A DNA stretch of 60,579 nucleotides from Chitinophagales bacterium (GCA_020629205.1 JAHDDV010000001.1:1-60579); one strand, 5' to 3'; positions 15,140-60,579 are shown, counted from the first letter of the stretch. A program made the numbers and translations. The notes: generated by a model not told the origin, from the sequence alone.

Positions 15140-18100
15140 ATGATCAAGTTTAGGAATCTTCTACTCCTATTGCTCTGCTGCCTCGTGACCTTTCCTGCAG
15201 AGCTTCAAGCAACCGATGAACGTCTTATTATTAGTTCAATTGCCAATGGCGCTTCAAGCGGACTAATTGGACAAATGACTGTTGAGAATATCTCGGAGGA
15301 TTTGGTGCCTTTTCAATTTGGCCCCTACGTAATTCCAGCTTCAGAAGCAAGTCAGGGATACGTCTTGCCAGGTGAAAGAGTCGTCATGATTCCCCCGGGA
15401 GAAGCTAAAACGCTTCCACTGTACGGATATTGCTACAGCTTACATAAGGCACCCGCCAATGCTAATGGCAGTTTTGCTTCAATTGAAGATTGGGTACAGC
15501 CGGAAGACATGGATGGAGCCTGGGTGGAAAACCTCCGGTTCGGTGGCGTAAAACCTGATTTTCTTGAAGATTACCAGCCAAGTCAAACAACTCTACTGGT
15601 GCCTGCCAGCAATTTTGAGATGCCCTATGCCATTGACGAAGAAAGTAATCTCGTAGATGCAGCTGCACTGTATGTGGAGGCTTTGCGAAGAATTCACCTG
15701 GCTTACTATCAGACCGATGGAATGGATTGGCTCGAAACGCCTTTTGATTACAAGAAGCAAAAGGAGCGAAATGCGGTCATTCAACAAACCTTCTGGATAT
15801 TCACTCAGGCCCTGGCTGGAGATGAGTACACATTTAGCGAGTTTGAAGAGCTCGTGTTCAGACAGCAAGTAGTCAAGGATTGGTCTAGTTCAAATAGCCG
15901 CTCGGTAAAAAATGAAGGCCTAAAGAGAGAAATCGTGAACTGGTGGGCGCTATTTAAAGACCTGGGAATAGTGGCGGGAATATTCAGAGCAGATATTTAT
16001 GACACCTTCCCGGCAAGTGTGTACCTCGATGCTCCTCAGGACTCCATTTCCCGCATACGTAAGCCTGAAAGTGTGCCAGACCTCGATTGGATACTCACTT
16101 ACCCATCCGACCACAATATTGGGCTGCGGGACAGTCTTGTAAACTCCGATCCTAATCTCTGGACAGAATGGAATGAAGAACTAAAAAAGGGACCGAAGAA
16201 AAGTGCTGATGGAAACATTCTTATCACGGTACCGATTTTCGATTGGGAGCAACATGACCCATACGCCAGACCTCAAAAGGCAGGTATAGACGACATGTGG
16301 CGGTTCATCGAATTGACCGGCTCTCTATTGAAAGAGTCCCCTAAAAAACCAGTTTGGCCATATGTAGTTGCCGCAGCGGCAGTAGTTGGCTCAGTGACTG
16401 CCATAGCCTTACTCAGCAATCAAGCCGATGATTGCGGCGATTGCGATGACGGCGACCCTTGTACCAATGATGTTTGTGTCTATCCGGATTGCGTAAACAC
16501 CCTTATCAACTGCGACGATGGCGATCCCTGCACCGCCGATTATTGTGAAAATGGAATTTGCATCAATGCGCCCATTCAGGATTGCTGCCAAAGCGAAGAA
16601 GATTGTGCTGATGACAACCCTTGCACCATCAATACCTGTGTCAATGGAACGTGTCAATTGGAGTTCATAACCTGCGATGATGGCGATCCTTGTACAACCG
16701 ATTTTTGCCAGAATGGTACCTGTGTATACGAACCCAATGCTTGTGACGATGGAGACCCATGTACCATTGATGACTGCGATGAAGAAGGGAATTGCACGCA
16801 TGAACCAAAAATCTGCGATGACGAAAACCCCTGTACAATTGATGCATGCGATGAGAATGGAAACTGCTTTTTCACCTCAATACCATGCGATGACGGTGAC
16901 CCATGTACTGATGACAGCTGTGAAAATGGAGATTGCGTATTTGTAGCTATTGACTGTGATGATGGTGATCCATGTACACAGGACTCTTGCGATGGTGCTG
17001 GAAACTGTATCAATGAACCGATCGTCTGTGACGATGGAGATCCCTGTACACAGGACAGTTGCGACGAGGGAGACTGTGTGTTTGAAGCTATTGTTTGTGA
17101 CGACGGTGATCCCTGTACGACTGACTATTGCGATGAAAACGGAGATTGTGTCTTCGAAGGTACTACATGCGATGATGGCGATCCTTGTACAATAGACAGT
17201 TGTGATGAGTTTGGGGACTGTGTCTTTGAACCAGTAGTTTGTAACGATGGAAATGCTTGTACCGAAGACCTTTGTGATGAAAACGGTAGCTGTATTTCAA
17301 TTCCAATCATTTGCGATGACAATGATCCGTGTACGGAAGACTCTTGCGATCCGGTTCTTGGCTGCGTTTATGAACCAATTGAAGCCTGCTGTACCGGCCC
17401 GGAGAGTTGTGATGATGGCGACCCATGTACTATTGATCAGTGTAATACTTTTACCGGAGAATGTTTCTCAGTACCGGTGATCTGTAATGATGGAAATGCC
17501 TGCACGCTGGACTATTGTGATGGCAATGGAAGCTGCGTTTCAGAACCAATCGTTTGCGACGATGGTGATCCCTGTACTGAAGATCTCTGCGATCCCGTAG
17601 ACGGCTGCCAATTCATACCAATTGAAAACTGCTGCGATGGCATCGGGAATTGCGATGATGGTGATCCTTGCACTATTGACCAATGTAACCCTGAGACAGG
17701 TGAATGTGTCTCCATCCCACTCAACTGCAATGACGGCAATGCTTGTACTATTGATACTTGCGATGATGAAGGAAACTGTAGCCATGAAGAAATCACTTGT
17801 AACGATGGTAATCCCTGTACAGAGGATGTTTGTGATCCTGAGCTGGGTTGTCAGTTCATTCCAATCGAAGGTTGTTGTACTTCACCTCTGGCTTGTGATG
17901 ACGGCGACCCCTGTACCGTGGACCAATGTACCGGCAACAACGTCTGTGTACATTTTCCACTAAACTGTGATGACGGTGATCCCTGTACTGAGGATTTCTG
18001 TGAGGATGGAGGCTGCCAAAATGTACCCATCAGTTGTGACGATGGGAACCCGTGTACAGAAGATACCTGTGATCCGGAGCTCGGTTGTATCTATACACCC

Positions 18101-21100
18101 ATCGCGGCTTGCTGTCAAAGTCCTGAAGACTGCGACGATAATAATCCCTGTACAGAAGATACTTGTGATCCCGAAACAGGGATTTGCAGCAATATTGAAA
18201 TCGACTGTGATGATGGAGATCCTTGTACCGTTGATGTTTGTCAAGGCAATGGCATCTGTGATCATATCTTCATTACAGATTGTTGCGGTGAAAATGGAAA
18301 CTGCGATGATGGTGATCCATGTACTGTAGATAGCTGTGATCCCTTCTCAAGCGAGTGTATTAATGAACCGATTGTCTGCGATGATGGTGATGCCTGTACC
18401 TATGATAGCTGTGATGAGGAGGGCAATTGTGTTAGCATCCTCTTTATTTGTCAGGATGGTGATCCTTGTACCCAGGATACTTGCGACCCCGAGCTCGGAT
18501 GTATATTCATTCCGATTGAAAACTGCTGTTCAGGTATCGGGACTTGTGATGATGGTGACCCATGTACTATTGATGTTTGTGATGAGGATACGGGCACTTG
18601 TATCAGCAGCCCGATTAATTGCGACGATGGCAACCCTTGTACCCTGGATCAATGCGATGGAGAAGGAAACTGTATCTACTTTGAAGTCGGCTGCTCGGAT
18701 GGGGATATCTGCACCGAAGATATCTGTGACCCAATTGAAGGCTGCATCTTCGTTCCGATCGAAGGCTGTTGTGCCAATGCTTCCGATTGTCCAATCTCCG
18801 ACCCATGTACTCAGGCAATTTGCAATCTTGAAAATGGCGAATGCTTATATGTTCCCATTGACTGTGATGACGGGGATCCTTGTACCAATGATTTCTGTGA
18901 GGACGGGTTCTGCCAATTCGTTCCAGTCGTTTGCGATGATGGAAATGATTGTACCGAGGATATCTGTACAGAAAATGGTTGCGAGTATATCCCAATTGAA
19001 GCTTGCTGTGCAGATGAGGCTGATTGCGATGATGGCAATGCATGTACCATTGATACCTGTGATCCAGAAACGGGACTTTGTAGCAACGAGCCGATTTCTT
19101 GCGATGACGGTGATCCCTGTACAGAAGACTTCTGCTCTGGCGATGGTATCTGTGTCAATCAACCGATTGTCTGCGATGATGACAACCCTTGCACTGAAGA
19201 TGCATGCGTAGATGGCGAATGTGTGTTTACAGATATTGATTGTGATGATGGAAACCCATGTACCGAAGATCTCTGTGACGCCTTTTTGGGTTGCCAGAAT
19301 GTACCTATTGGAGGTTGCTGTCAGGGAAGTGAGGATTGTGATGATGGCGATCCCTGTACAATTGATACTTGTGATGCGGAAACCAACACCTGTATGAGCA
19401 TCCCAGTTAGTTGCTCGGACGGAGACGCCTGTACCACAGACTTCTGTGATGGTGAAGGCAATTGTGTCCATGAGGCAATCACCTGCGATGACGGTGATCC
19501 TTGTACCGAAGATAGCTGTGATCCCGTAACAGGTTGCGTCTTTACACCGATTGAGGGATGTTGTCAGGTAGCTGCCGATTGCGATGATGGCGATCCATGT
19601 ACTGTTGCCGAATGTGATCTGGAAGCAGGTTCTTGCGTCTTCGTTCCAATCGATTGTGATGACAACAACGCTTGCACCACCGACTTCTGTAATGAGGATG
19701 GAGCCTGCGTGCATGAGCCGATTTCTTGCGATGATGGTGACCCTTGTACAGAAGATTCATGCGATCCTGTGGAGGGCTGTATATATACACCAGTCGAAAA
19801 CTGTTGCTCCGATGCTGTCGACTGCGACGATGGTGATCCTTGTACAATCGATACCTGCGAAGACGGAAACTGTGTCAACAGCCCAAAAGACTGTGATGAC
19901 GGCGATGCTTGTACCATCGATAGCTGTGACGCCGAAGGAAATTGCATTTACGAAGAATTCGTCTGTGACGATGGAAATGACTGTACCGAAGACTTCTGTG
20001 ATCCGGTGGAGGGTTGCCGATATGTACCAATCGAAAGCTGTTGCTCGGGCCCGGAGGATTGTGATGACGGTGATCCTTGCACAATCGATGACTGTGATCC
20101 CGAGACAGGAGAATGTATGAACACTCCCGTAGCCTGCGATGATAACGATGCATGTACAACGGATTCCTGCAATGAACTGGGAGAATGCGTGTTTGAAGCC
20201 ATCAGCTGTGATGACGGCGACCCTTGTACTGAAGATACCTGTGATCCTGAATTGGGTTGTGTCTATACCGCCATTGAAAATTGCTGTGAATCGGGTAATG
20301 ACTGCGATGACGGAAATCCTTGTACCTTGGACACCTGTTCAGAAAATGGCGAATGCATATATGCACCGATCTCATGTGATGATGGCAATGCCTGCACCAT
20401 CGACACCTGTGATGGAGAAACCGGTGCCTGCATCAATACTCCTATAGATTGCGATGATGGTGATCCTTGTACCACCGATAGCTGTGATGGAAGTGGAAAT
20501 TGCATCAACGAAGCAATCTCTTGTGATGATGGCAATGCTTGTACCATTGATAGCTGCGACGCAGATGGCAACTGTGTGTACGAGTTTACTGCCTGCGACG
20601 ACAATGACCCATGTACCGAAGACCTCTGCGATTCTGATACAGGAGAGTGTACATCAGTGCCGCTGGATTGCAGCGATGGGAATCCATGCACCATCGATAG
20701 CTGCGATGGTGAAGGCAATTGCATCAATACGCCTATCGATTGTGCGGATGATAATCCTTGTACTGAGGACATCTGCAACGGAGCAACTGGTGAATGTGTC
20801 CACGTGATTATCAATTGCGATGATGGCAATGCCTGTACCTGGGACTACTGCGATGGTGAAGGCAATTGCATCCATCAGGAGTTTGAGTGTGATGATGGTG
20901 ATCCATGTACCATCGATTCTTGCGATCCGGCTCTGGGATGCGTCTCTACTCCTATAGAAGGATGTTGTACTGAAGAAGCTGATTGCGATGATGGTGATCC
21001 TTGTACCATCGATTCCTGTGAAGCAGGTACTTGTACCAACACACCGATCAGCTGTGATGATAACGATCCATGTACCGAAGATAGCTGCAATGCCGAGACA

Positions 21101-24100
21101 GGAGACTGTGAGTACACTCCGATAGAGGGATGCTGCGAAGGACCAGATTCCTGCGACGATGGTGATCCATGCACAGTAGATACCTGCGTAGACGGCACTT
21201 GCATCAACACACCAAATGATTGTGACGATGGCGATCCTTGTACTGCAGATTCCTGCGATACGGAAACCGGCGACTGCATCAATGAGCTGATTGCCGATTG
21301 CTGTACCGAACCTGCTGCCTGCGACGATGGCGATCCATGTACAGTGGATACCTGTGAAGACGGCACTTGTGTCAATACCCCAAATGATTGCGACGACGGA
21401 GATCCTTGCACCACAGATTTCTGTGATCCTGAAACAGGTGATTGCATTAATGAGCTTTCATCCAATTGCTGTGATCTGAATGAAGACTGCGACGATGGCG
21501 ACCCATGTACCGTAGACACTTGCGAAGACGGCACTTGTGTCAATACCCCAAATGATTGCGATGATGGCGATCCCTGCACCATCGATACTTGCGAAGATGG
21601 CAACTGTGTGAACAGCCCTCAGGTTTGTGATGACGAAAACCCCTGTACCATTGATACCTGCGAAGATGGCAATTGTCTCTTCACCCCAATTGACTGCGAT
21701 GACGGTGATCCTTGCACAACGGACTTCTGCGACTCCGAAACAGGGGAATGTGTATATGTTACCATCGAGCTTTGCTGTACGGAGCCGGGCGACTGTGATG
21801 ACGGCGATCCTTGTACAGTCGATACCTGCGAAGACGGCCTTTGTGTCTTCACACCAACGAGCTGCGATGATGGCGATCCATGTACGACTGACAGCTGCGA
21901 TCCAATTACTGGCGATTGCCTGTTTACACCAAATGACAACTGCTGCTCAGAACCGGGCGACTGCGATGATGGCGATCCCTGTACCATTGATACCTGTGAG
22001 GATGGGGTTTGTGTCTTCACTCCAGCGACTTGCGATGATGGCGATCCATGTACCACAGATAGCTGCGATCCCGACACAGGCGATTGCGTGTTCACTCCAA
22101 ATGAAAACTGCTGTTCGGAACCAGGCGATTGTGATGACGGCGATCCTTGTACGGTCGATACCTGTGAGGATGGAGTCTGTGTCTTCACTCCAGCCGATTG
22201 CGATGATGGTGATCCTTGTACGCTTGACTCCTGTGATCCGAAGACGGGCGACTGTGTAAATGTACCGCTCGATTGTGATGACGGTGATCCTTGCACAATC
22301 GATAGCTGCGATGGCGGCGAATGCATCAATGAACCTGTGAACTGTGATGATGGCGATCCTTGTACCGTTGACAGCTGCGACGCCAGCACTGGCGAATGTA
22401 TCAATGAAGCGGTAGTGTGCGATGATAATAATCCATGCACTGATGATGCTTGCAATGCTGTAACAGGGGAATGCGAATTCACCGACAATGGTACTTGCTG
22501 CAATGGCATCGAAGATTGTGATGACGGTGATCCTTGTACCATCGATACCTGCGAAGATGGTGCCTGTGTAAACACCCCGAATCCATGCGATGATGGTGAC
22601 CCTTGTACGATAGATACCTGCGAAGAAGGAGGCGTCTGTGTCAATACCCCACAGCTCTGCGACGATGGTAACCCATGTACAAACGAATTCTGTAACGAAG
22701 ATGGTGATTGTGTCTATCAAACTATCGTTTGCAATGACGACAATCCCTGCACCAACGATTTCTGTGATGGAGAAGGAAATTGTGTGCATGAACCCATAGT
22801 CTGCGATGATGGTGATGCCTGTACCGTGGATACCTGCGATGCCGATGGCAACTGTGTCTTCACACCGATCACCTGCGATGATGGCTCCGATTGTACGGAG
22901 GATAGCTGCGATCCAGTGCTAGGCTGTGTATTCACTCCCGTAGACGAGATCTGCTGCGATTCCTCCATCGATTGTAATGACGGAGATCCTTGCACAGTCG
23001 ATACCTGTGAGGATGGCGCTTGCTATAACAGACTCTTTGTCTGCGATGACGAAGATCCCTGTACCACTCAATATTGTGAAGACGGTATTTGCTACTTCGA
23101 ACCAATCCTCTGCGATGATGGAAACGCCTGTACCTTTGATACTTGTGTGGATGGCAGCTGTGTCTTCACACCGATTATCTGCGATGATGGCGATCCATGT
23201 ACCGAGGAGTTCTGCAATGATGGTATCTGTGTAGGTAGTTTTGTCAATTGCGATGATGGCGATCCTTGCACCATCGATTATTGCGACAATGGTGCCTGCT
23301 ACCACGAACCTATTGTTTGTGATGATGGCGATCCTTGTACCTTTGATTTCTGTCTGGGCGGTGTATGCATCAGTACTACTATCGCCTGCGAAGACGGTGA
23401 TGGATGCACAATAGACTATTGCGAAAATGGCGACTGCTTCTCTGAGCATCTCTATGAATGGGAGTTCAATATCAACAATCCAAGTGCGATTGGCGAAGGC
23501 GATGGCTCGATCACCATGACCATCACCAACACGCCGATGGATTCGCTCTATTGGTTCTGGTTGATTCAAGGTTCGGATACACTCGAAATTGGCAATGATC
23601 TCACGACCTACACTTTTGATGAATTGTTTGCCGGAGATTACTTCGTCGAGGCATTTATTGCTGATAGCTGTACCACGGGTCCTCAGCTCATCACGCTGGA
23701 TGACGGCCCCGGACATCAGCCGCTCCTGCAAGCAGACCAATGGCTGCTATGGACCCTGACTAATCCGGCAACGCTGCAATGGCAGCCAAGTGCTGAAGCG
23801 ATCAGGCCAGAGCGGGAGCTAGTTGGCAATGAAGCCTTTGATGGAAATTGGGTCTTAGTGCCATCCAACAATGCGAATGCTACCTTTGCTCAACCGATTT
23901 CGCCAAATGCACGCGTGCAGCTTAGTACGATGCTCTTTGATGGCCAGGTGTTCTACTTCTCCGAAAATCCACAGACCAACAATTGGACGGCCTTAGAGGA
24001 CCCGGTTTTGGTGACACAGTTGAAAGGACTATTGCTGGAAGGTAGCTATCAATACTTCCCGACATCGAAGCAGCAAGTTTATCTGGGTGCTGGTCTAAAT

Positions 24101-24331
24101 TACCAGTACATCACTGCGGGTCCGACAGTCCTTTACACGGATTTAGGTGCCACCACCTTCCCGGAGATTGAGCAGGATCATTACCTGATACCATATTTGG
24201 AAGCTGGATTTGATAAAGACATAAGTAAACGAATTAACCTACATGGACGAGCGGCCTTGTACCATGGACTCCAACAATCCTGGGCTCCATATTTCAATCT
24301 CGGTCTGCGCGTTCCTTTGGAAAGAGAATAG
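15140..24331 (+). CDS. Giant (3063 aa) Cys/Asp-rich tandem-repeat surface protein
   Basis: A single uninterrupted ORF with an ATG start and signal peptide MIKFRNLLLLLLCCLVTFPAELQA. It comprises a ~400-aa unique N-domain, a hydrophobic segment, about 90 CDDGDPCTxDxC modules, one SprB-repeat-like module and a ~270-aa Cys-free C-terminus. Confidence 0.85.
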   Translation: MIKFRNLLLLLLCCLVTFPAELQATDERLIISSIANGASSGLIGQMTVENISEDLVPFQFGPYVIPASEASQGYVLPGERVVMIPPGEAKTLPLYGYCYSLHKAPANANGSFASIEDWVQPEDMDGAWVENLRFGGVKPDFLEDYQPSQTTLLVPASNFEMPYAIDEESNLVDAAALYVEALRRIHLAYYQTDGMDWLETPFDYKKQKERNAVIQQTFWIFTQALAGDEYTFSEFEELVFRQQVVKDWSSSNSRSVKNEGLKREIVNWWALFKDLGIVAGIFRADIYDTFPASVYLDAPQDSISRIRKPESVPDLDWILTYPSDHNIGLRDSLVNSDPNLWTEWNEELKKGPKKSADGNILITVPIFDWEQHDPYARPQKAGIDDMWRFIELTGSLLKESPKKPVWPYVVAAAAVVGSVTAIALLSNQADDCGDCDDGDPCTNDVCVYPDCVNTLINCDDGDPCTADYCENGICINAPIQDCCQSEEDCADDNPCTINTCVNGTCQLEFITCDDGDPCTTDFCQNGTCVYEPNACDDGDPCTIDDCDEEGNCTHEPKICDDENPCTIDACDENGNCFFTSIPCDDGDPCTDDSCENGDCVFVAIDCDDGDPCTQDSCDGAGNCINEPIVCDDGDPCTQDSCDEGDCVFEAIVCDDGDPCTTDYCDENGDCVFEGTTCDDGDPCTIDSCDEFGDCVFEPVVCNDGNACTEDLCDENGSCISIPIICDDNDPCTEDSCDPVLGCVYEPIEACCTGPESCDDGDPCTIDQCNTFTGECFSVPVICNDGNACTLDYCDGNGSCVSEPIVCDDGDPCTEDLCDPVDGCQFIPIENCCDGIGNCDDGDPCTIDQCNPETGECVSIPLNCNDGNACTIDTCDDEGNCSHEEITCNDGNPCTEDVCDPELGCQFIPIEGCCTSPLACDDGDPCTVDQCTGNNVCVHFPLNCDDGDPCTEDFCEDGGCQNVPISCDDGNPCTEDTCDPELGCIYTPIAACCQSPEDCDDNNPCTEDTCDPETGICSNIEIDCDDGDPCTVDVCQGNGICDHIFITDCCGENGNCDDGDPCTVDSCDPFSSECINEPIVCDDGDACTYDSCDEEGNCVSILFICQDGDPCTQDTCDPELGCIFIPIENCCSGIGTCDDGDPCTIDVCDEDTGTCISSPINCDDGNPCTLDQCDGEGNCIYFEVGCSDGDICTEDICDPIEGCIFVPIEGCCANASDCPISDPCTQAICNLENGECLYVPIDCDDGDPCTNDFCEDGFCQFVPVVCDDGNDCTEDICTENGCEYIPIEACCADEADCDDGNACTIDTCDPETGLCSNEPISCDDGDPCTEDFCSGDGICVNQPIVCDDDNPCTEDACVDGECVFTDIDCDDGNPCTEDLCDAFLGCQNVPIGGCCQGSEDCDDGDPCTIDTCDAETNTCMSIPVSCSDGDACTTDFCDGEGNCVHEAITCDDGDPCTEDSCDPVTGCVFTPIEGCCQVAADCDDGDPCTVAECDLEAGSCVFVPIDCDDNNACTTDFCNEDGACVHEPISCDDGDPCTEDSCDPVEGCIYTPVENCCSDAVDCDDGDPCTIDTCEDGNCVNSPKDCDDGDACTIDSCDAEGNCIYEEFVCDDGNDCTEDFCDPVEGCRYVPIESCCSGPEDCDDGDPCTIDDCDPETGECMNTPVACDDNDACTTDSCNELGECVFEAISCDDGDPCTEDTCDPELGCVYTAIENCCESGNDCDDGNPCTLDTCSENGECIYAPISCDDGNACTIDTCDGETGACINTPIDCDDGDPCTTDSCDGSGNCINEAISCDDGNACTIDSCDADGNCVYEFTACDDNDPCTEDLCDSDTGECTSVPLDCSDGNPCTIDSCDGEGNCINTPIDCADDNPCTEDICNGATGECVHVIINCDDGNACTWDYCDGEGNCIHQEFECDDGDPCTIDSCDPALGCVSTPIEGCCTEEADCDDGDPCTIDSCEAGTCTNTPISCDDNDPCTEDSCNAETGDCEYTPIEGCCEGPDSCDDGDPCTVDTCVDGTCINTPNDCDDGDPCTADSCDTETGDCINELIADCCTEPAACDDGDPCTVDTCEDGTCVNTPNDCDDGDPCTTDFCDPETGDCINELSSNCCDLNEDCDDGDPCTVDTCEDGTCVNTPNDCDDGDPCTIDTCEDGNCVNSPQVCDDENPCTIDTCEDGNCLFTPIDCDDGDPCTTDFCDSETGECVYVTIELCCTEPGDCDDGDPCTVDTCEDGLCVFTPTSCDDGDPCTTDSCDPITGDCLFTPNDNCCSEPGDCDDGDPCTIDTCEDGVCVFTPATCDDGDPCTTDSCDPDTGDCVFTPNENCCSEPGDCDDGDPCTVDTCEDGVCVFTPADCDDGDPCTLDSCDPKTGDCVNVPLDCDDGDPCTIDSCDGGECINEPVNCDDGDPCTVDSCDASTGECINEAVVCDDNNPCTDDACNAVTGECEFTDNGTCCNGIEDCDDGDPCTIDTCEDGACVNTPNPCDDGDPCTIDTCEEGGVCVNTPQLCDDGNPCTNEFCNEDGDCVYQTIVCNDDNPCTNDFCDGEGNCVHEPIVCDDGDACTVDTCDADGNCVFTPITCDDGSDCTEDSCDPVLGCVFTPVDEICCDSSIDCNDGDPCTVDTCEDGACYNRLFVCDDEDPCTTQYCEDGICYFEPILCDDGNACTFDTCVDGSCVFTPIICDDGDPCTEEFCNDGICVGSFVNCDDGDPCTIDYCDNGACYHEPIVCDDGDPCTFDFCLGGVCISTTIACEDGDGCTIDYCENGDCFSEHLYEWEFNINNPSAIGEGDGSITMTITNTPMDSLYWFWLIQGSDTLEIGNDLTTYTFDELFAGDYFVEAFIADSCTTGPQLITLDDGPGHQPLLQADQWLLWTLTNPATLQWQPSAEAIRPERELVGNEAFDGNWVLVPSNNANATFAQPISPNARVQLSTMLFDGQVFYFSENPQTNNWTALEDPVLVTQLKGLLLEGSYQYFPTSKQQVYLGAGLNYQYITAGPTVLYTDLGATTFPEIEQDHYLIPYLEAGFDKDISKRINLHGRAALYHGLQQSWAPYFNLGLRVPLERE
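16430..23440 (+). repeat. In-frame coding tandem-repeat array (about 90 units of 66-90 nt)
   Basis: I hand-counted 90 [PADIG]-C-T motifs in the consensus C-D-D-G-D-P-C-T-x-D-x-C-x(3-6)-C-x(4-7). A longer variant ending in ..PIExCC....C recurs periodically. Confidence 0.9.
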
Positions 24332-24350
24332 TAATTTTGAGTATATGCGT

Positions 24351-24553
24351 TTTTGGAGCCGGGCAGATCGGGCCGTAGCAGCGGCCTACCCGTGCTCCGC
24401 TAATACTCAGCACCCAGCTAGCTGCTCCAGCTCAGCCAGTAGCATCTCCTCCTATCGTCGGAGCTACTACTGGCTGGCTTGCGCCACGCTATCCGGGCAC
24501 TTCGTTCCGCTGCGCCCGGGGCTATTGGGCCAGGTCTTTCGAGCGCGCTAAAT
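24351..24553 (+). repeat. Interspersed intergenic repeat, copy C (long form with tail)
   Basis: Starts 19 nt after the giant gene's stop. It differs from copy F by 10 substitutions and no indels over 172 nt (hand alignment). The tail is GGGCCAGGTCTTTCGAGCGCGCTAAAT. Confidence 0.85.
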
Positions 24554-24633
24554 AGACGATCTAAGGAATGTAGCACTGTGTCAATATAGTTGCAATACTC
24601 GCTATTGATGCCACGGATTTTGTATGAGAAAAG

Positions 24634-24836
24634 CTAACGCGCTCGAAAGACTGCGCAAATTAGCCCGGATAGAAATGGAAATGAAGGCCTCAGTTCAGGA
24701 GACTGAGCGCCAGCTAGTGCTGGCTGTGAGGAACGAGCAGACAGCAATAGCTGTGCAGCGAAGCCCTGAATGAGGCCTTCATTGGAATGGATAGCCGGAC
24801 GGTCGCTGCTACGGCCGAAAATGCTGGGCTCCAAAA
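24634..24836 (-). repeat. Divergent subfamily copy D, inverted relative to copy C
   Basis: The reverse complement starts TTTTGGAGCCCAGC..GGCCGTAGCAGCGACC and ends GTCTTTCGAGCGCGTTAG, so its termini are shared with copy C. The interior is different and contains an 18-bp long-range stem (24680-24698 / 24766-24783). Confidence 0.7.
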
Positions 24837-24961
24837 GATTAATTAGCAAAAAAAGACATAGTGCAGAAGGACATCAATGAGGGACAAGAATACCGAATCG
24901 GGATCGGCCGCATTTCCGGTAATGATGGTATTGGATTACTGGGGAGCGCAAATGAATACAG

Positions 24962-39172: not shown

Positions 39173-39408
39173 TCTGAAATTTTTCACAAAAATAAGTAAT
39201 TCAGACGTCTATTAATCAAAACTATTGCTTTAAGACAGATTTATTAGACCTGCCAAAAAACAGGATGCAGAACAGCAAGCGCGCGAGCCCTTTTGTTTTG
39301 CAACAATAAGCATTAATTGAAACGTAGGAAAGGCCTCAAAGGTGCAGAAGGCAAAGCTTAACATTATTTATGCCCGATCTCGGAAGAGATGTTATTTTCT
39401 AGAGATGA

Positions 39409-39590
39409 TTTTTTTTGGAGCCGAGCTGATAAGGGCGCGCTGGCATATTACGGGTGCTCCGCTAATACTCAGCACTGTGCTAGCTGCTCCTGCTCAGCCT
39501 CTGCCGTCTCCTCCTATCGTCGGAGCCGCCATAGGCTGGCATCCGCCACGCTATCACAGCACTTCGTTCCGCTGCGCCCCCGGCTATATA
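39409..39590 (+). repeat. Interspersed intergenic repeat, copy E (most diverged main-family copy)
   Basis: TTTTTTTTGGAGCCGAGC...GGGTGCTCCGCTAATACTCAGCACTGTGCTAGCTGCTCC...TCTCCTCCTATCGTCGGAGCC...CACGCTATCACAGCACTTCGTTCCGCTGCGCCCCCGGCTATA. Confidence 0.8.
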
Positions 39591-39690
39591 GCACCCGCGT
39601 ACTACCGCGCTGGCACCAAATAAAAATCCACCGGCTCCGAAAACAAATAGGGAAATCCCTGCAAAATGCAGCATCTGACGATAATTCAAT

Positions 39691-39731
39691 ACACATACAC
39701 AATACACAATACACAATACACAATACACAAT
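39691..39731. repeat. Heptanucleotide microsatellite (ACACAAT)n
   Basis: One degenerate unit (ACACAT) is followed by 5 perfect ACACAAT units (39697-39731). It sits 12 nt beyond the stop of the response-regulator gene. Confidence 0.9.
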
Positions 39732-43366: not shown

Positions 43367-43439
43367 GCGAAAGTAGCTCAGCTGGTAGAGCACAACCTTG
43401 CCAAGGTTGGGGTCGCGAGTTCGAATCTCGTCTTTCGCT
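43367..43439 (+). tRNA. tRNA-Gly (anticodon GCC)
   Basis: Hand-folded cloverleaf: acceptor GCGAAAG/CTTTCGC, D arm GCTC/GAGC, anticodon stem CAACC/GGTTG with loop TTGCCAA, and T arm GCGAG-TTCGAAT-CTCGT. CCA is not encoded. Confidence 0.9.
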
Positions 43440-43461: not shown

Positions 43462-43550
43462 GCCCAGGTGGTGGAATTGGTAGACACGCAGGACTTAAAA
43501 TCCTGTGGGCAGTAATGCCCGTGTGGGTTCAAGTCCCACCCTGGGTACCA
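43462..43550 (+). tRNA. tRNA-Leu (anticodon UAA), CCA encoded
   Basis: Acceptor GCCCAGG/CCTGGGT, anticodon stem CAGGA/TCCTG with loop CTTAAAA, a long variable arm (TGGGCAGTAATGCCCGT), T arm GTGGG-TTCAAGT-CCCAC, then ACCA. Confidence 0.9.
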
Positions 43551-56657: not shown

Positions 56658-59276
56658 ATGGAAATCGCAAAAACCTATAGTCCAAATGAGGTTGAAGATC
56701 GCTGGTACCGCTACTGGCTCGAAAACCAGGTCTTCAAGTCCACACCAGACGAAAGAGAGGCATACACTATCGTCATTCCTCCGCCAAATGTCACAGGTGT
56801 CTTGCACATGGGTCATATGCTTAACAACACCATTCAGGATTTATTGATCCGTCGCGCACGAATGCGTGGCTACAACGCCTGCTGGGTGCCGGGAACCGAT
56901 CACGCAAGCATCGCCACAGAAGCCAAAGTGGTCAACATGCTGGCCGAAAAAGGCATTAAGAAAGAGGACCTGACACGAGAGCAGTTCATGGAACACGCTT
57001 TCGAATGGAAAGAAAAGTACGGAGGAATCATCCTAAAGCAGTTGCAAAAGCTTGGTGCCTCCTGTGATTGGGATCGTACCCGATTTACTTTGGAGCCAAA
57101 GCTCTCGGATGCCGTAATCAAGGTTTTTGTTCAGCTATACGAAAAAGGCCTCATTTACAAGGGCTATAGAATGACCAATTGGGATCCTGTGGCCAAGACG
57201 GCCATTATGGACGAGGAAGTATACCACGAAGAACGGAATGCCAGATTGTACCATGTGCGCTATAAGATCGAAGGGACAGAAGATGAATGGGTAACCATCG
57301 CTACGACAAGGCCGGAGACCATTATGGGGGATACCGCCATTTGTTTCCACCCTGAAGATGAACGATACGCTCACCTCAAGGGTAAAAGAGCTATCATTCC
57401 GCTCATAAATCGCTCCATTGAATTCATCTACGACGAATATGTAGATATGGAGTTTGGTACCGGTGCCCTCAAAATTACACCCGCACATGACCCTAATGAT
57501 TATGTACTGGGTAAGAAGCACAATCTGGAGATCATCGATATCCTCAATGAGGACGCGACCCTAAACGAAAAAGCACAAATATACGTAGGTGAAGACCGAA
57601 AGGTAGCCCGAAAAAAGGTGGCCAAAGACCTCGAAGAAGCTGGCCATCTGGTTAAAGTCGAGGACCTTAGGCACAAGGTGGGCTTTAGCGAACGCACCAA
57701 GGTGGTCATTGAACCCCGACTCACCAGTCAGTGGTTTGTGAAGATGAAAACCTTGGCAGAACCAGCACTCAAGAGCGTTTTAGAAGAGGATATCAAGTTC
57801 TTTCCCAAAAACTACGAAAACCTCTATCGGCACTGGATGGAAGGCATTCACGATTGGTGTATTTCCCGTCAGCTTTGGTGGGGACAACGTATCCCGGTCT
57901 GGTACATCAATGATGATGAATTTGTAGTGGCTGAAAATGAAGCCGCTGCACTTGAAAAGGCTAGAGAAAAAACGAACAATCCGAATTTGCAGCTAGCTGA
58001 TCTACGGCAAGAAGAAGATGTAGTAGATACCTGGTTCTCCTCCTGGCTCTGGCCAATCTCAGTTTTCGATGGCTTCGAATCCGAAGAAGAACTCAACTAC
58101 TACTATCCAACTCAAGTGCTGGTAACAGGCTGGGATATTATCTTTTTCTGGGTAGCCAGAATGGTCATGGCCGGTATCGAATTCAAAGGTGAAAAACCAT
58201 TTAGCCATGTATACTTCACAGGCATGGTACGTGATACGCAGGGAAGAAAGATGTCCAAATCGCTGGGTAACTCGCCGGATCCACTGGATTTGATCTCCAA
58301 TTTTGGGGCTGATGCAGTACGTATCGGTCTGCTCTTCGCTTCCCCCGCCGGAGGTGATCTGCTATTCGATGACAAGCTATGTGATCAGGGCCGCAACTTT
58401 AGCAATAAGATCTGGAATGCACTACGCCTCATCAAAGGATGGGAAGTGAAACCAGGAGATAATCCAATCAATGTTCCGGCAATGGATTGGTTTGAAAATA
58501 AACTCTACAAAGTAATCGCTGAAACAGATACACAGTATGAAACCTATCGTATTTCAGAACTGCTGAAGCAACTTTATTCCTTTGTATGGAATGACTTCTG
58601 CTCTGTTTATCTGGAAATGGTGAAGCCGGACTTCGGTGAGCCCATCGACGAGTTTACATACGAAAAGACGGTATGGTTCTTTGGCGAATTGATGAAGCTG
58701 CTACATCCACTCATGCCGTTTATTACCGAGGAGATTTACCACCAACTTGAAGAGCGCTCGGCTGGGGATTGCATTGCATTGGCCAGCTATCCGATGACAG
58801 CCCCGCATGATGAAACAGCTCTGCAAAACGGCGAAATGGCTAAGGACATCATCTCAAGGATCCGTGATATTCGAAACAAGCAGGGACTGAAACAGAGAGA
58901 GCCGCTAAAGCTATATTACAATAGTGCGAACCTGCATACGCATGCAGAGTTTAAGGAACTCATCAAGCGTAAGGCATTCCTGGAGTGCTTCGAAGCTACG
59001 GACCAGGAAGTCGAAAATTCTGTCAACTTTATGATCGAAAAGGACAGCTTCTTTGTTGAGACAGGAAAGACGGTGGATGTGGAAACGGAGCTGAAGCGAT
59101 TGAAAGAAGAGCAGACCTACCTTACCGGATTCGCAAACTCAGTTCGCAAAAAATTGTCTAACGAACGCTTTGTGAACAATGCGCCGGAAGCGGTAGTCAA
59201 TAAAGAAAAGAAGAAACTGGAAGACGCAGAATCAAAGCTGCAAACCATTCAAGCAACGATTTCACAGCTTTCCTAA
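56658..59276 (+). CDS. valS: Valine--tRNA ligase
   Basis: HIGH-type motif PPNVTGVLHMGH, KMSKS, and a C-terminal coiled coil. I prefer the ATG at 56658 (MEIAKTYSPNEVEDRWY); the ORF track starts at 56637 on a non-ATG codon. Confidence 0.95.
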   Translation: MEIAKTYSPNEVEDRWYRYWLENQVFKSTPDEREAYTIVIPPPNVTGVLHMGHMLNNTIQDLLIRRARMRGYNACWVPGTDHASIATEAKVVNMLAEKGIKKEDLTREQFMEHAFEWKEKYGGIILKQLQKLGASCDWDRTRFTLEPKLSDAVIKVFVQLYEKGLIYKGYRMTNWDPVAKTAIMDEEVYHEERNARLYHVRYKIEGTEDEWVTIATTRPETIMGDTAICFHPEDERYAHLKGKRAIIPLINRSIEFIYDEYVDMEFGTGALKITPAHDPNDYVLGKKHNLEIIDILNEDATLNEKAQIYVGEDRKVARKKVAKDLEEAGHLVKVEDLRHKVGFSERTKVVIEPRLTSQWFVKMKTLAEPALKSVLEEDIKFFPKNYENLYRHWMEGIHDWCISRQLWWGQRIPVWYINDDEFVVAENEAAALEKAREKTNNPNLQLADLRQEEDVVDTWFSSWLWPISVFDGFESEEELNYYYPTQVLVTGWDIIFFWVARMVMAGIEFKGEKPFSHVYFTGMVRDTQGRKMSKSLGNSPDPLDLISNFGADAVRIGLLFASPAGGDLLFDDKLCDQGRNFSNKIWNALRLIKGWEVKPGDNPINVPAMDWFENKLYKVIAETDTQYETYRISELLKQLYSFVWNDFCSVYLEMVKPDFGEPIDEFTYEKTVWFFGELMKLLHPLMPFITEEIYHQLEERSAGDCIALASYPMTAPHDETALQNGEMAKDIISRIRDIRNKQGLKQREPLKLYYNSANLHTHAEFKELIKRKAFLECFEATDQEVENSVNFMIEKDSFFVETGKTVDVETELKRLKEEQTYLTGFANSVRKKLSNERFVNNAPEAVVNKEKKKLEDAESKLQTIQATISQLS

Positions 59277-59280
59277 TTTC

Positions 59281-59460
59281 TTTTTTTGGAGCCCGGCAGA
59301 TAGGGCCGTGGCGGCGACCTACCCGTGCTCCGCTAATACTCAGCACCCAGCTAGCTGCTCCAGCTCAGCCATTAGCGTCTCCTCCTATCGTCGGAGCCAC
59401 TACTGGCTGGCTTGCGCGACGCTATCAGGGCACTTCGTTCCGCTGCGCCCGGGGCTATTT
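59281..59460 (+). repeat. Interspersed intergenic repeat, copy F (short form; used here as the reference copy)
   Basis: Starts within 5 nt of the valS stop: TTTTTTTGGAGCCCGGCAG...CCCGTGCTCCGCTAATACTCAGCACCCAGCTAGCTGCTCCAGCTCAGCC...TCTCCTCCTATCGTCGGAGCC...GACGCTATCAGGGCACTTCGTTCCGCTGCGCCCGGGGCTATT. Confidence 0.88.
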
Positions 59461-59576
59461 AGCAAGGATCTTGGATCGCGCAAGAGAGAAACTTGTGCCT
59501 TGAAATCAATTTGTGGATAGTTTGACTGAAGTATCTTTATGGCCAGAAAAAATAATATCCAAATAATCGCTCCAGC

Positions 59577-60509: not shown

Positions 60510-60579
60510 GTATCGCTTGATCTTAACCACAGAAATGCACGCAGTACCAAATGGTTACGGTCCCGCGATCGACGAACGG

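Follow-up and report, generated by a model that had tools for sequence, protein, structure and literature searches.

Long hairpin repeats in the intergenic spacers of a Chitinophagales bacterium and their kinship with the Flavo-1 family

Results

A repeat family in the spacers of a Chitinophagales contig

The DNA analyzed here, referred to throughout as the window, is the whole of a 60,579-nt stretch from a Chitinophagales bacterium (GCA_020629205.1 JAHDDV010000001.1:1-60579), whose closest homologs carry Chitinophagales labels. The 26 window proteins that were scanned are housekeeping or of unknown family, and no transposase, HUH protein, RAYT, reverse transcriptase, or tnpA/tnpB product was found among them. 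One ORF of 3063 aa (15140-24331, plus strand) holds dozens of tandem Cys-rich units of ~23-24 aa (CDDGDPCT.D.C...), with repeat periods of 69-72, 141-168, and 243 nt; its ortholog in the Chitinophagales genome MAG-174 is 3118 aa long, with no Pfam match on record.

Dispersed between these genes is a repeat. An nhmmer profile built from the window copies and run on the whole window matched six places with E values from 1e-23 to 1e-70, here called copies A to F, and gave no further matches in the window beyond these six. A seventh copy, G, begins at the very end of the window and is documented by a Logan contig (L099:1113-1210) that overlaps the window end and matches the profile with an E value of 6e-11. 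Copies in MAG-174 are given the prefix M_ (M_Sel, M_Rtc, and M_E). The copies and the parts of copy F are as follows, each with the strand that folds (see below):

1..118, minus strand: copy A, cut by the window start
7338..7540, plus strand: copy B, main type, between convergent genes (nhmmer 7318-7549)
24348..24549, minus strand: copy C, main type (nhmmer 24338-24569)
24636..24839, plus strand: copy D, divergent type (nhmmer 24616-24849)
39410..39611, minus strand: copy E, main type, between the signal-peptidase and response-regulator genes (nhmmer 39400-39631)
59281..59482, minus strand: copy F, whole element, placed by nhmmer (59271-59501, E 1e-70), column-to-coordinate mapping, and sequence
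59454..59458, minus strand: UAGCC leader of copy F, immediately 5' of the hairpin
59322..59453, minus strand: long imperfect hairpin of copy F, 42 bp, from RNAalifold and pair counts
59281..59292, minus strand: 3' terminus of the folded strand of copy F, GCUCC then A7 (TTTTTTTGGAGC on the plus strand)
60563..60579, plus strand: copy G, start of the first small hairpin (hp1) only, continuing past the window end

A preliminary description of the window, made from its sequence, had placed six strictly intergenic copies at about these coordinates, and both the positions and the intergenic location are borne out, as the ORFs that overlap copies are spurious and the copies sit between real genes. 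It had missed copy G, at ~60563, and a further ~22 nt of the element, since along the strand used in that description the true 3' end of every copy lies ~22 nt farther on, at a conserved GCGCG. The end motif that it gave for the main family does not hold for copy E, which ends in GCGCCCCCGGCTATA and lacks CAGCTAGCTG. The distances that it gave between copies and stop codons are accurate: the 3' terminus of copy F begins 5 nt past the valS stop codon, and copy C lies 17 nt past the stop codon (24329-24331) of the 3063-aa gene. Copy A lies 125 nt downstream of a carbonic-anhydrase gene and in the same orientation. For copies C and F, the reported count of 10 substitutions across 172 nt, with no indel, is exact (94% identity). 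The elements have a GC content of 0.59-0.61, against 0.46 for the window, and the motif TTTTGGAGC occurs nine times in the window against 1.0 expected, with five of the nine occurrences being copy starts.

Short-read Logan contigs of the source organism (L099, L100, L101, L102, and L120, from SRR14415273-5) end inside copies A, B, F, and G, as would be expected of a high-copy repeat in assembly. No strain-level empty site was seen in these contigs, which end within the repeats.

A long hairpin maintained by compensatory change

In an alignment of five window copies, RNAalifold returned one long imperfect hairpin in which 22 of 55 pairs were compensated. A larger alignment (A6, n = 13), drawn from three sources, comprises the window copies, six from the MAG-174 loci L103, L105, and L106, and those of L002 and L092; here the hairpin spans ~135 nt and 42 bp with 95.2% of cells paired, and double changes are seen at 36 of the 42 pairs. 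Not one of 500 shuffles reached any of the five measures applied, and when the partner strand was slid by 1-3 columns pairing fell to 24-41%. Even copies C and F, despite being 94% identical, are separated by one A-U to G-C double change. The preliminary description, which saw no compensatory base changes in support of a conserved fold, was thus mistaken on this point.

Read along the folded strand, the unit consists of GCGCG with hp1, then (A)AAUAGCC, the ~135-nt hairpin, a second hairpin (hp2), YUUCGCUCC, and a run of A4-8. The hairpins hp1 and hp2 lie outside the long hairpin and are small and variable in sequence; the conserved motifs (A)AAUAGCC on the 5' side and YUUCGCUCC with its A4-8 run on the 3' side are single stranded, and the UAGCC leader is invariant in 13 of 13 copies. 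The internal loops of the long hairpin are conserved and purine rich, and AGCGGA is present on both arms, giving a pseudo-symmetric A.G / G-C / C-G / G.A block whose tandem G.A pair is swapped for Watson-Crick pairs in other subtypes. In the case of copy F, the order is GCGCG with a variable hp1, AAAUAGCC, the long hairpin, hp2, GCUCC, and the A-run, and the hairpin has the purine-rich internal loops, AGCGGA on each arm, and a motif of the Flavo-1 type at its base.

Several other structures were tried and rejected. The closing helices AGCCCCGG/CCGGGCU, GGGCGCAGCGG/CUGCCGGGCUC, and AGCGCG/CGGGCU are each 78-79% paired, no better than shuffles, and the partner in a GGAGC...GCUCC helix on the opposite strand varies without compensation. 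Readings as an integron attC site, an sso-type origin (TAGCGT), or a K-turn depend on motifs that are not conserved across subtypes, and a small ORF or type I toxin mini-gene of 10-12 codons, which follows AGGAGG in copies F and C, has no start codon in copy E.

Only one strand is under selection to fold

Selection to fold acts only on the complement of the strand on which the preliminary description had read the family. On this strand G-U accounts for 35 cells of the 42 pairs and A-C for 4, and in none of the 13 copies does A-C outnumber G-U. In all seven copies compared (7/7) the folded strand has the lower minimum free energy, by 12-20 kcal/mol, and copy F has a z-score against shuffles of -2.2 on the folded strand and +0.5 on the opposite one. 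A mutational strand bias cannot explain the G-U asymmetry, because copies occur in both chromosomal orientations. The orientation given earlier must therefore be reversed, and the folded strand is also the one matched by the Rfam Flavo-1 model. What had been taken for the start of each copy, a T-run followed by GGAGC, is actually the 3' end of the folded strand, GCUCC with the A-run; in copy F the T-run of the plus strand is this A-run.

Genomic context of the copies

Almost every copy has a gene 3' end on one side or both, and six of the copies begin 0-32 nt past a stop codon; at these six the transcript of the gene would carry the non-selected strand. Relative to the adjacent gene, eight copies are sense and five antisense, and relative to the putative direction of replication the split is four against three, with no bias in either respect. 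Scans of the copy ends for a terminator (a hairpin with a U-tract) found none on either strand, and scans for a sigma-70-like site coinciding with the copy ends were likewise negative. Inspection of the T-run, and of the sequence upstream of the folded strand, gave no consistent second box for a promoter of the Bacteroidetes type (TTTG / TAnnTTTG), and this reading was rejected. Inspection of the flanks of 13 copies showed no consistent direct repeat of the kind left by target-site duplication; AAAAG flanks copies B and D only. The spacer of copy E also contains a microsatellite, (CAATACA) x 6.6, at 39687-39731, ~75 nt from the end of the copy at 39611. Copies C and D lie tail to tail, with element ends at 24549 and 24636, 86 nt apart.

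Site turnover between genomes

The nearest public relative is the Chitinophagales genome MAG-174, which is syntenic with the whole window and has amino-acid identities to it of 86% for ValRS, 67% for the S8 peptidase, and 58% for BshC. The two genomes are too diverged for nucleotide-level junctions, and empty and filled sites were compared at the level of spacers:

Sites A, C, and F: occupied in the window; occupied in MAG-174 in the same position and orientation
Site B: occupied in the window; empty in MAG-174, with a 12-nt spacer
Sites D and G: occupied in the window; absent from MAG-174
Site E: occupied in the window (39400-39631, 213 nt from the signal-peptidase gene); occupied in MAG-174 (L105:17669-17900, 210 nt from it) in opposite orientation
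SelR / carbonic-anhydrase spacer: empty in the window; degenerate copy M_Sel in MAG-174
Downstream of RtcB: site beyond the window; copy M_Rtc in MAG-174

In a third genome (L104, GCA_020629335.1, a more distant Chitinophagales with 70% ValRS identity) the valS spacer is 131 nt long and gives no profile match. Identity is 55-57% for copies at the same site in the window and in MAG-174, against 65-83% among the window copies and 66-77% between these and the main-type copies found elsewhere in MAG-174 and on a metagenome contig. The lower identity at shared sites suggests either the recent spread of a subtype that overwrote older copies or strongly site-specific insertion. The hp1 tail behaves as a separate module: copies C and F differ at 13 of 32 tail positions against 10 of 172 core positions, and the cores of C and D are 56% identical, yet these two copies have a near-identical 14-nt tail motif, GTCTTTCGAGCGCG.

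Taken at the level of spacers, these comparisons show that, between two syntenic genomes, copies have been gained, lost, replaced by another subtype, or inverted. The dispersed, mobile-like or REP-like behavior that the preliminary description had proposed is supported by the empty, extra, replaced, and inverted sites, and copies are not simply fixed at orthologous loci, site B being empty in MAG-174.

Beyond these genomes, scans of genome and metagenome collections with exact motifs returned mostly chance matches, the true relatives being only L002, L014 (MAG-174), and L092; a viral scan with the main-type motif and BLASTN against plasmids and phages gave no matches. In the L014 contig of MAG-174 a tandem array of CACCTTG/AACCTTG heptamers (3411-3475, minus strand) adjoins a truncated copy of which the first ~55 nt are left. 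On L002 (MAG-174 contig JAHDEE010000220), the gene segment for the C-terminal part of a type IIG restriction-methyltransferase (1046-1996, minus strand; PADLOC E 2e-89) is followed ~120 nt downstream by the main-type copy, and the same contig has a weak second, degenerate repeat match at 282-405.

Relationship to Flavo-1 (RF01705)

Flavo-1 has a one-sentence description and was listed as a probable non-coding RNA found in Bacteroidetes, with 239 representatives, stems of variable length, and covariation (Weinberg et al. 2010, PMC2864571). It has been in Rfam since 2010 with the label 'Gene; sRNA', and is among the most abundant bacterial Rfam sRNA families by instance count (PMC9029176). Of its matches in F. 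psychrophilum many are untranscribed, and the orientation to transcripts may be sense or antisense (PMC9723704). A literature search found no functional study of the family.

The RF01705 model has 76 positions and a gathering threshold of 42 bits. At that threshold Rfam reports only two tRNAs in the window, adjacent genes at 43367-43439 and 43462-43547 on the plus strand, and no copy passes, so that by the Rfam cut-off the main type is not a member of Flavo-1. Copy D comes close, with 40.8 bits and an E value of 1.2e-7 at 24658-24805 (plus strand); its match spans the entire model with a 78-nt insertion at the apical loop and falls on the strand inferred independently from pairing. The degenerate MAG-174 copy M_Sel scores 36.8 bits, against 45.4 and 42.2 bits for two bona fide elements used for comparison (L109 and L107). 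Targeted scans of copies F, C, and M_E gave no match at E<=5-10, and a sensitive scan of F returned junk. Copy D is tied to the main type by a profile built from main-type copies only, which recovers it over its full length with an E value of 1.6e-10.

The relationship emerges in both directions when dedicated covariance models are used. Model R1 was constructed from 13 type-a Flavo-1 seeds from the literature; its 11 best matches include all six window copies, on the folded strand, and it aligns copy F at 59315-59460 (minus strand) in the correct register, with main-type matches that are individually non-significant (E 0.27-2.7). Conversely, model R2, built from the stem bases of 11 copies without an Rfam match, scores copy F at 75 bits and recovers the Rfam-passing elements on viral contigs (L109, E 5e-6; L107, E 0.004), with no false match in 178 kb. 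The 13-copy consensus runs from its base as helix, 1-nt bulge, 2 bp, 3-nt purine loop, 2 bp, GGA loop, helix, and variable apical stem, which is exactly the Flavo-1 architecture. Models and architecture together show the repeats to be a branch of the Flavo-1 family, which is widespread in Bacteroidota; the branch is specific to the present lineage and has diverged and lengthened. The preliminary description had recognized no named RNA family and had let the novelty of the element depend on its escaping assignment to one; the link to RF01705 lowers that novelty.

The 3' module (hp2, UUCGCUYC, and the A-run) lies outside the Rfam model. In published alignments inspected with their flanks, it is present at three of four Flavobacterium type-a loci (...CUUUUCGCUUCAAAAAAAA, ...CUGCUUCAAAAAA, and ...CUUGCUCCUAAUAA), and in L109 it reads ...GUUCGCUCCUAAAAAA.

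Flavo-1 elements above the Rfam threshold occur on two IMG/VR contigs labeled viral, at L107:841-926 (minus strand) and at L109:9082-9148 (plus strand), the latter with a GUUCGCUCC+A-run 3' module. Three other IMG/VR contigs (L111, L114, and L115) are matched by the seed-built model alone (29.2 bits). The more distant Chitinophagales genome L104 holds two type-b Flavo-1-like elements, at 6170-6312 and 17276-17419 (both minus strand), with UUAGGGAUGG...GGACAGCCCGACC, a long GGCU...AGAC apex like that of the present copies, and an outer helix GGCUU/AAGCC; both are weak matches that were found by model only and missed by the type-a sequence profile, and one of the two also has a ~70-nt perfect hairpin.

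Discussion

The explanation that we favor, at a probability of about one half or slightly better, is that the family is a non-autonomous selfish repeat, copied or converted by an enzyme that acts in trans and recognizes a hairpin in a single-stranded intermediate. The family would persist by a REPIN-like logic as an interspersed element, new copies being made, or existing ones overwritten by conversion, through an enzyme whose gene lies elsewhere. Such an enzyme would recognize the pseudo-symmetric hairpin, and perhaps the 3' module too, in an intermediate that may be ssDNA or RNA. Copies would survive where insertion is harmless, mostly in spacers beside gene 3' ends, and effects on the host, for example on mRNA ends, would be secondary. 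No mobilizing enzyme was found among the 26 window proteins scanned, and the four-to-three distribution relative to replication does not favor a lagging-strand-template mechanism. Two considerations weigh against a selfish repeat: gene conversion or deletion without transposition could produce an equal pattern of presence and absence, and the conserved loops and ongoing compensatory change would fit an RNA useful to the host equally well.

A host RNA could take two forms, both of which we consider unlikely. If the copies were independently transcribed sRNAs, acting in trans or using the paired AGCGGA loops to sequester a dimeric RNA-binding protein, then the extensive covariation, the strand-specific folding, and the conserved purine-rich loops would follow, as would the listing of Flavo-1 as a probable non-coding RNA (Weinberg 2010, PMC2864571). 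Flank inspection and scans found no conserved promoter or terminator in or beside the copies, however, and neither their mixed orientation relative to neighboring genes nor the presence of seven copies in 60 kb with turnover of sites is what such genes would lead one to expect; many F. psychrophilum matches, moreover, are untranscribed or antisense (PMC9723704). The copies might instead be cis-acting parts of mRNAs, co-opted as 3'-UTR stabilizers, processing sites, or terminators, in keeping with the 3'-UTR or terminator-proximal role that the preliminary description had suggested. The prevalence of neighboring gene 3' ends, the six copies that begin 0-32 nt past a stop codon, and a CUAUUU(U) that follows the hairpin of the present lineage on the strand first read are all consistent with a role in cis. 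At the stop-proximal copies, however, the transcripts would carry the non-selected strand, the copies as a whole are split into eight sense and five antisense to the adjacent gene, no hairpin with a U-tract was found on either strand in the scans, and orthologous genes do without the element (site B in MAG-174, and valS in L104).

Explanations that look to double-stranded DNA account less readily for the fold. Classical MITEs, with terminal inverted repeats and cut-and-paste movement by the DDE transposase of a parental IS, would be gained and lost between genomes as the present copies are, and some MAG copies do have matching ends (T-run+GGAGC and GCGCC+A-run), with 11 of 12 positions agreeing in M_E. 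In most copies, however, the similarity of the termini is weak or absent and the terminal helices do not covary, there is no target-site duplication, no IS with such ends was found in the 180 kb examined, and transposase binding to the ends does not explain pairing along the whole hairpin or the G-U asymmetry. We consider a MITE origin quite improbable, and of the two affinities suggested earlier, the mobile or REP-like character is supported and that of a classical MITE with terminal inverted repeats is not, given the missing target-site duplication and the weak, inconsistent inverted similarity of the ends. It is also conceivable, if very improbable indeed, that the copies act as binding sites for a nucleoid or other DNA-binding protein, or in replication or recombination, with no need of mobility. 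Direct AGCGGA repeats on both arms, A-tracts at each end, and a GC content of 0.60 against 0.46 for the genome would suit a protein-binding site, whereas a duplex site needs neither hairpin covariation nor strand asymmetry, and the occupancy of individual sites is not conserved.

Flavo-1 as a whole could consist of mobile structured elements that spread across the Bacteroidota through a single-stranded intermediate, with the A-run as part of the mechanism. This wider proposal we regard as a long shot. The 3' module with its A-run might be likened to that of a SINE-like retroposon, or the element to a REPIN-like ssDNA element served by a domesticated enzyme; a literature search found nothing linking REP/RAYT or MITE systems to Flavobacterium or to Flavo-1. 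What the window adds is a branch of Flavo-1 that the Rfam model misses, a fuller anatomy in which the 3' hairpin, UUCGCUYC, and the A-run are conserved between Chitinophagales and Flavobacterium, an independent line of evidence on which strand folds, and comparative evidence of gain, loss, replacement, and inversion at specific spacers. An orphan sRNA thereby becomes the subject of a testable hypothesis, that of a structure-dependent selfish repeat. In practical terms, short-read assemblies of this lineage are fragmented at the repeats, which annotation pipelines will overlook.

Several known repeat systems share features with the family. REPs, as defined for this comparison, are palindromes of 20-40 nt with a GTAG or CGTC tag, two of which form an inverted pair in a REPIN (PMC3733652). 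The REPIN/REP-RAYT systems resemble the present repeats in being intergenic, high-copy, and non-coding, in having a long hairpin kept by compensatory changes and a strand-specific single-stranded form, and in the existence of similar copies around a master type that persist vertically with turnover. The copy sequences contain no GTAG or CGTC tag and no REP palindrome unit; the present element is twice as long, and its arms carry identical rather than complementary conserved motifs, which produce internal loops. Elements derived from IS200/IS605, such as PATEs and transposon-end guide RNAs, are similar in having no terminal inverted repeats or target duplications, in their strand specificity, and in placing small hairpins near both ends and a constant short motif at one flank. 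In contrast to these, the end hairpins of the present repeats are unrelated to each other, and the constant T/A run is on the wrong side for the folded strand; Rfam gave no match of the copies to IS605- or HEARO-type RNAs, and no tnpA/tnpB was found. The Bacillus bcr1, enterobacterial ERIC/IRU, Neisseria Correia, and pneumococcal BOX/RUP elements are likewise intergenic repeats of 100-220 nt that form stable hairpins. They often lie near gene ends in either orientation, expand in lineage-specific bursts, and have clear terminal inverted repeats with target duplications (TA, TTTAT) or a modular box structure; the present copies differ in that no clear terminal inverted repeats, target duplications, or modular boxes were seen.

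Finally, Flavo-1 is the nearest of the known families, with several differences. The main type falls below all Rfam reporting thresholds, its loops are changed from GAU.uG.aAG to GG.GC.GCA, the apical stem is 78-103 nt long compared with about 5-40 nt, the 5' GCGCG hairpin tail is specific to the present lineage, and the 3' module and the turnover of sites go beyond the published one-sentence description. What the two have in common is the matched strand and the 5' UAGCC, shared by the Rfam consensus, the seeds, and all 13 copies, the basal sequence of 3-4 bp, 1-nt bulge, 2 bp, 3-nt purine loop, 2 bp, GGA loop, and a stem of variable length, and a multi-copy distribution in Bacteroidota with no fixed gene neighbor, seen here as seven copies in 60 kb in mixed contexts.
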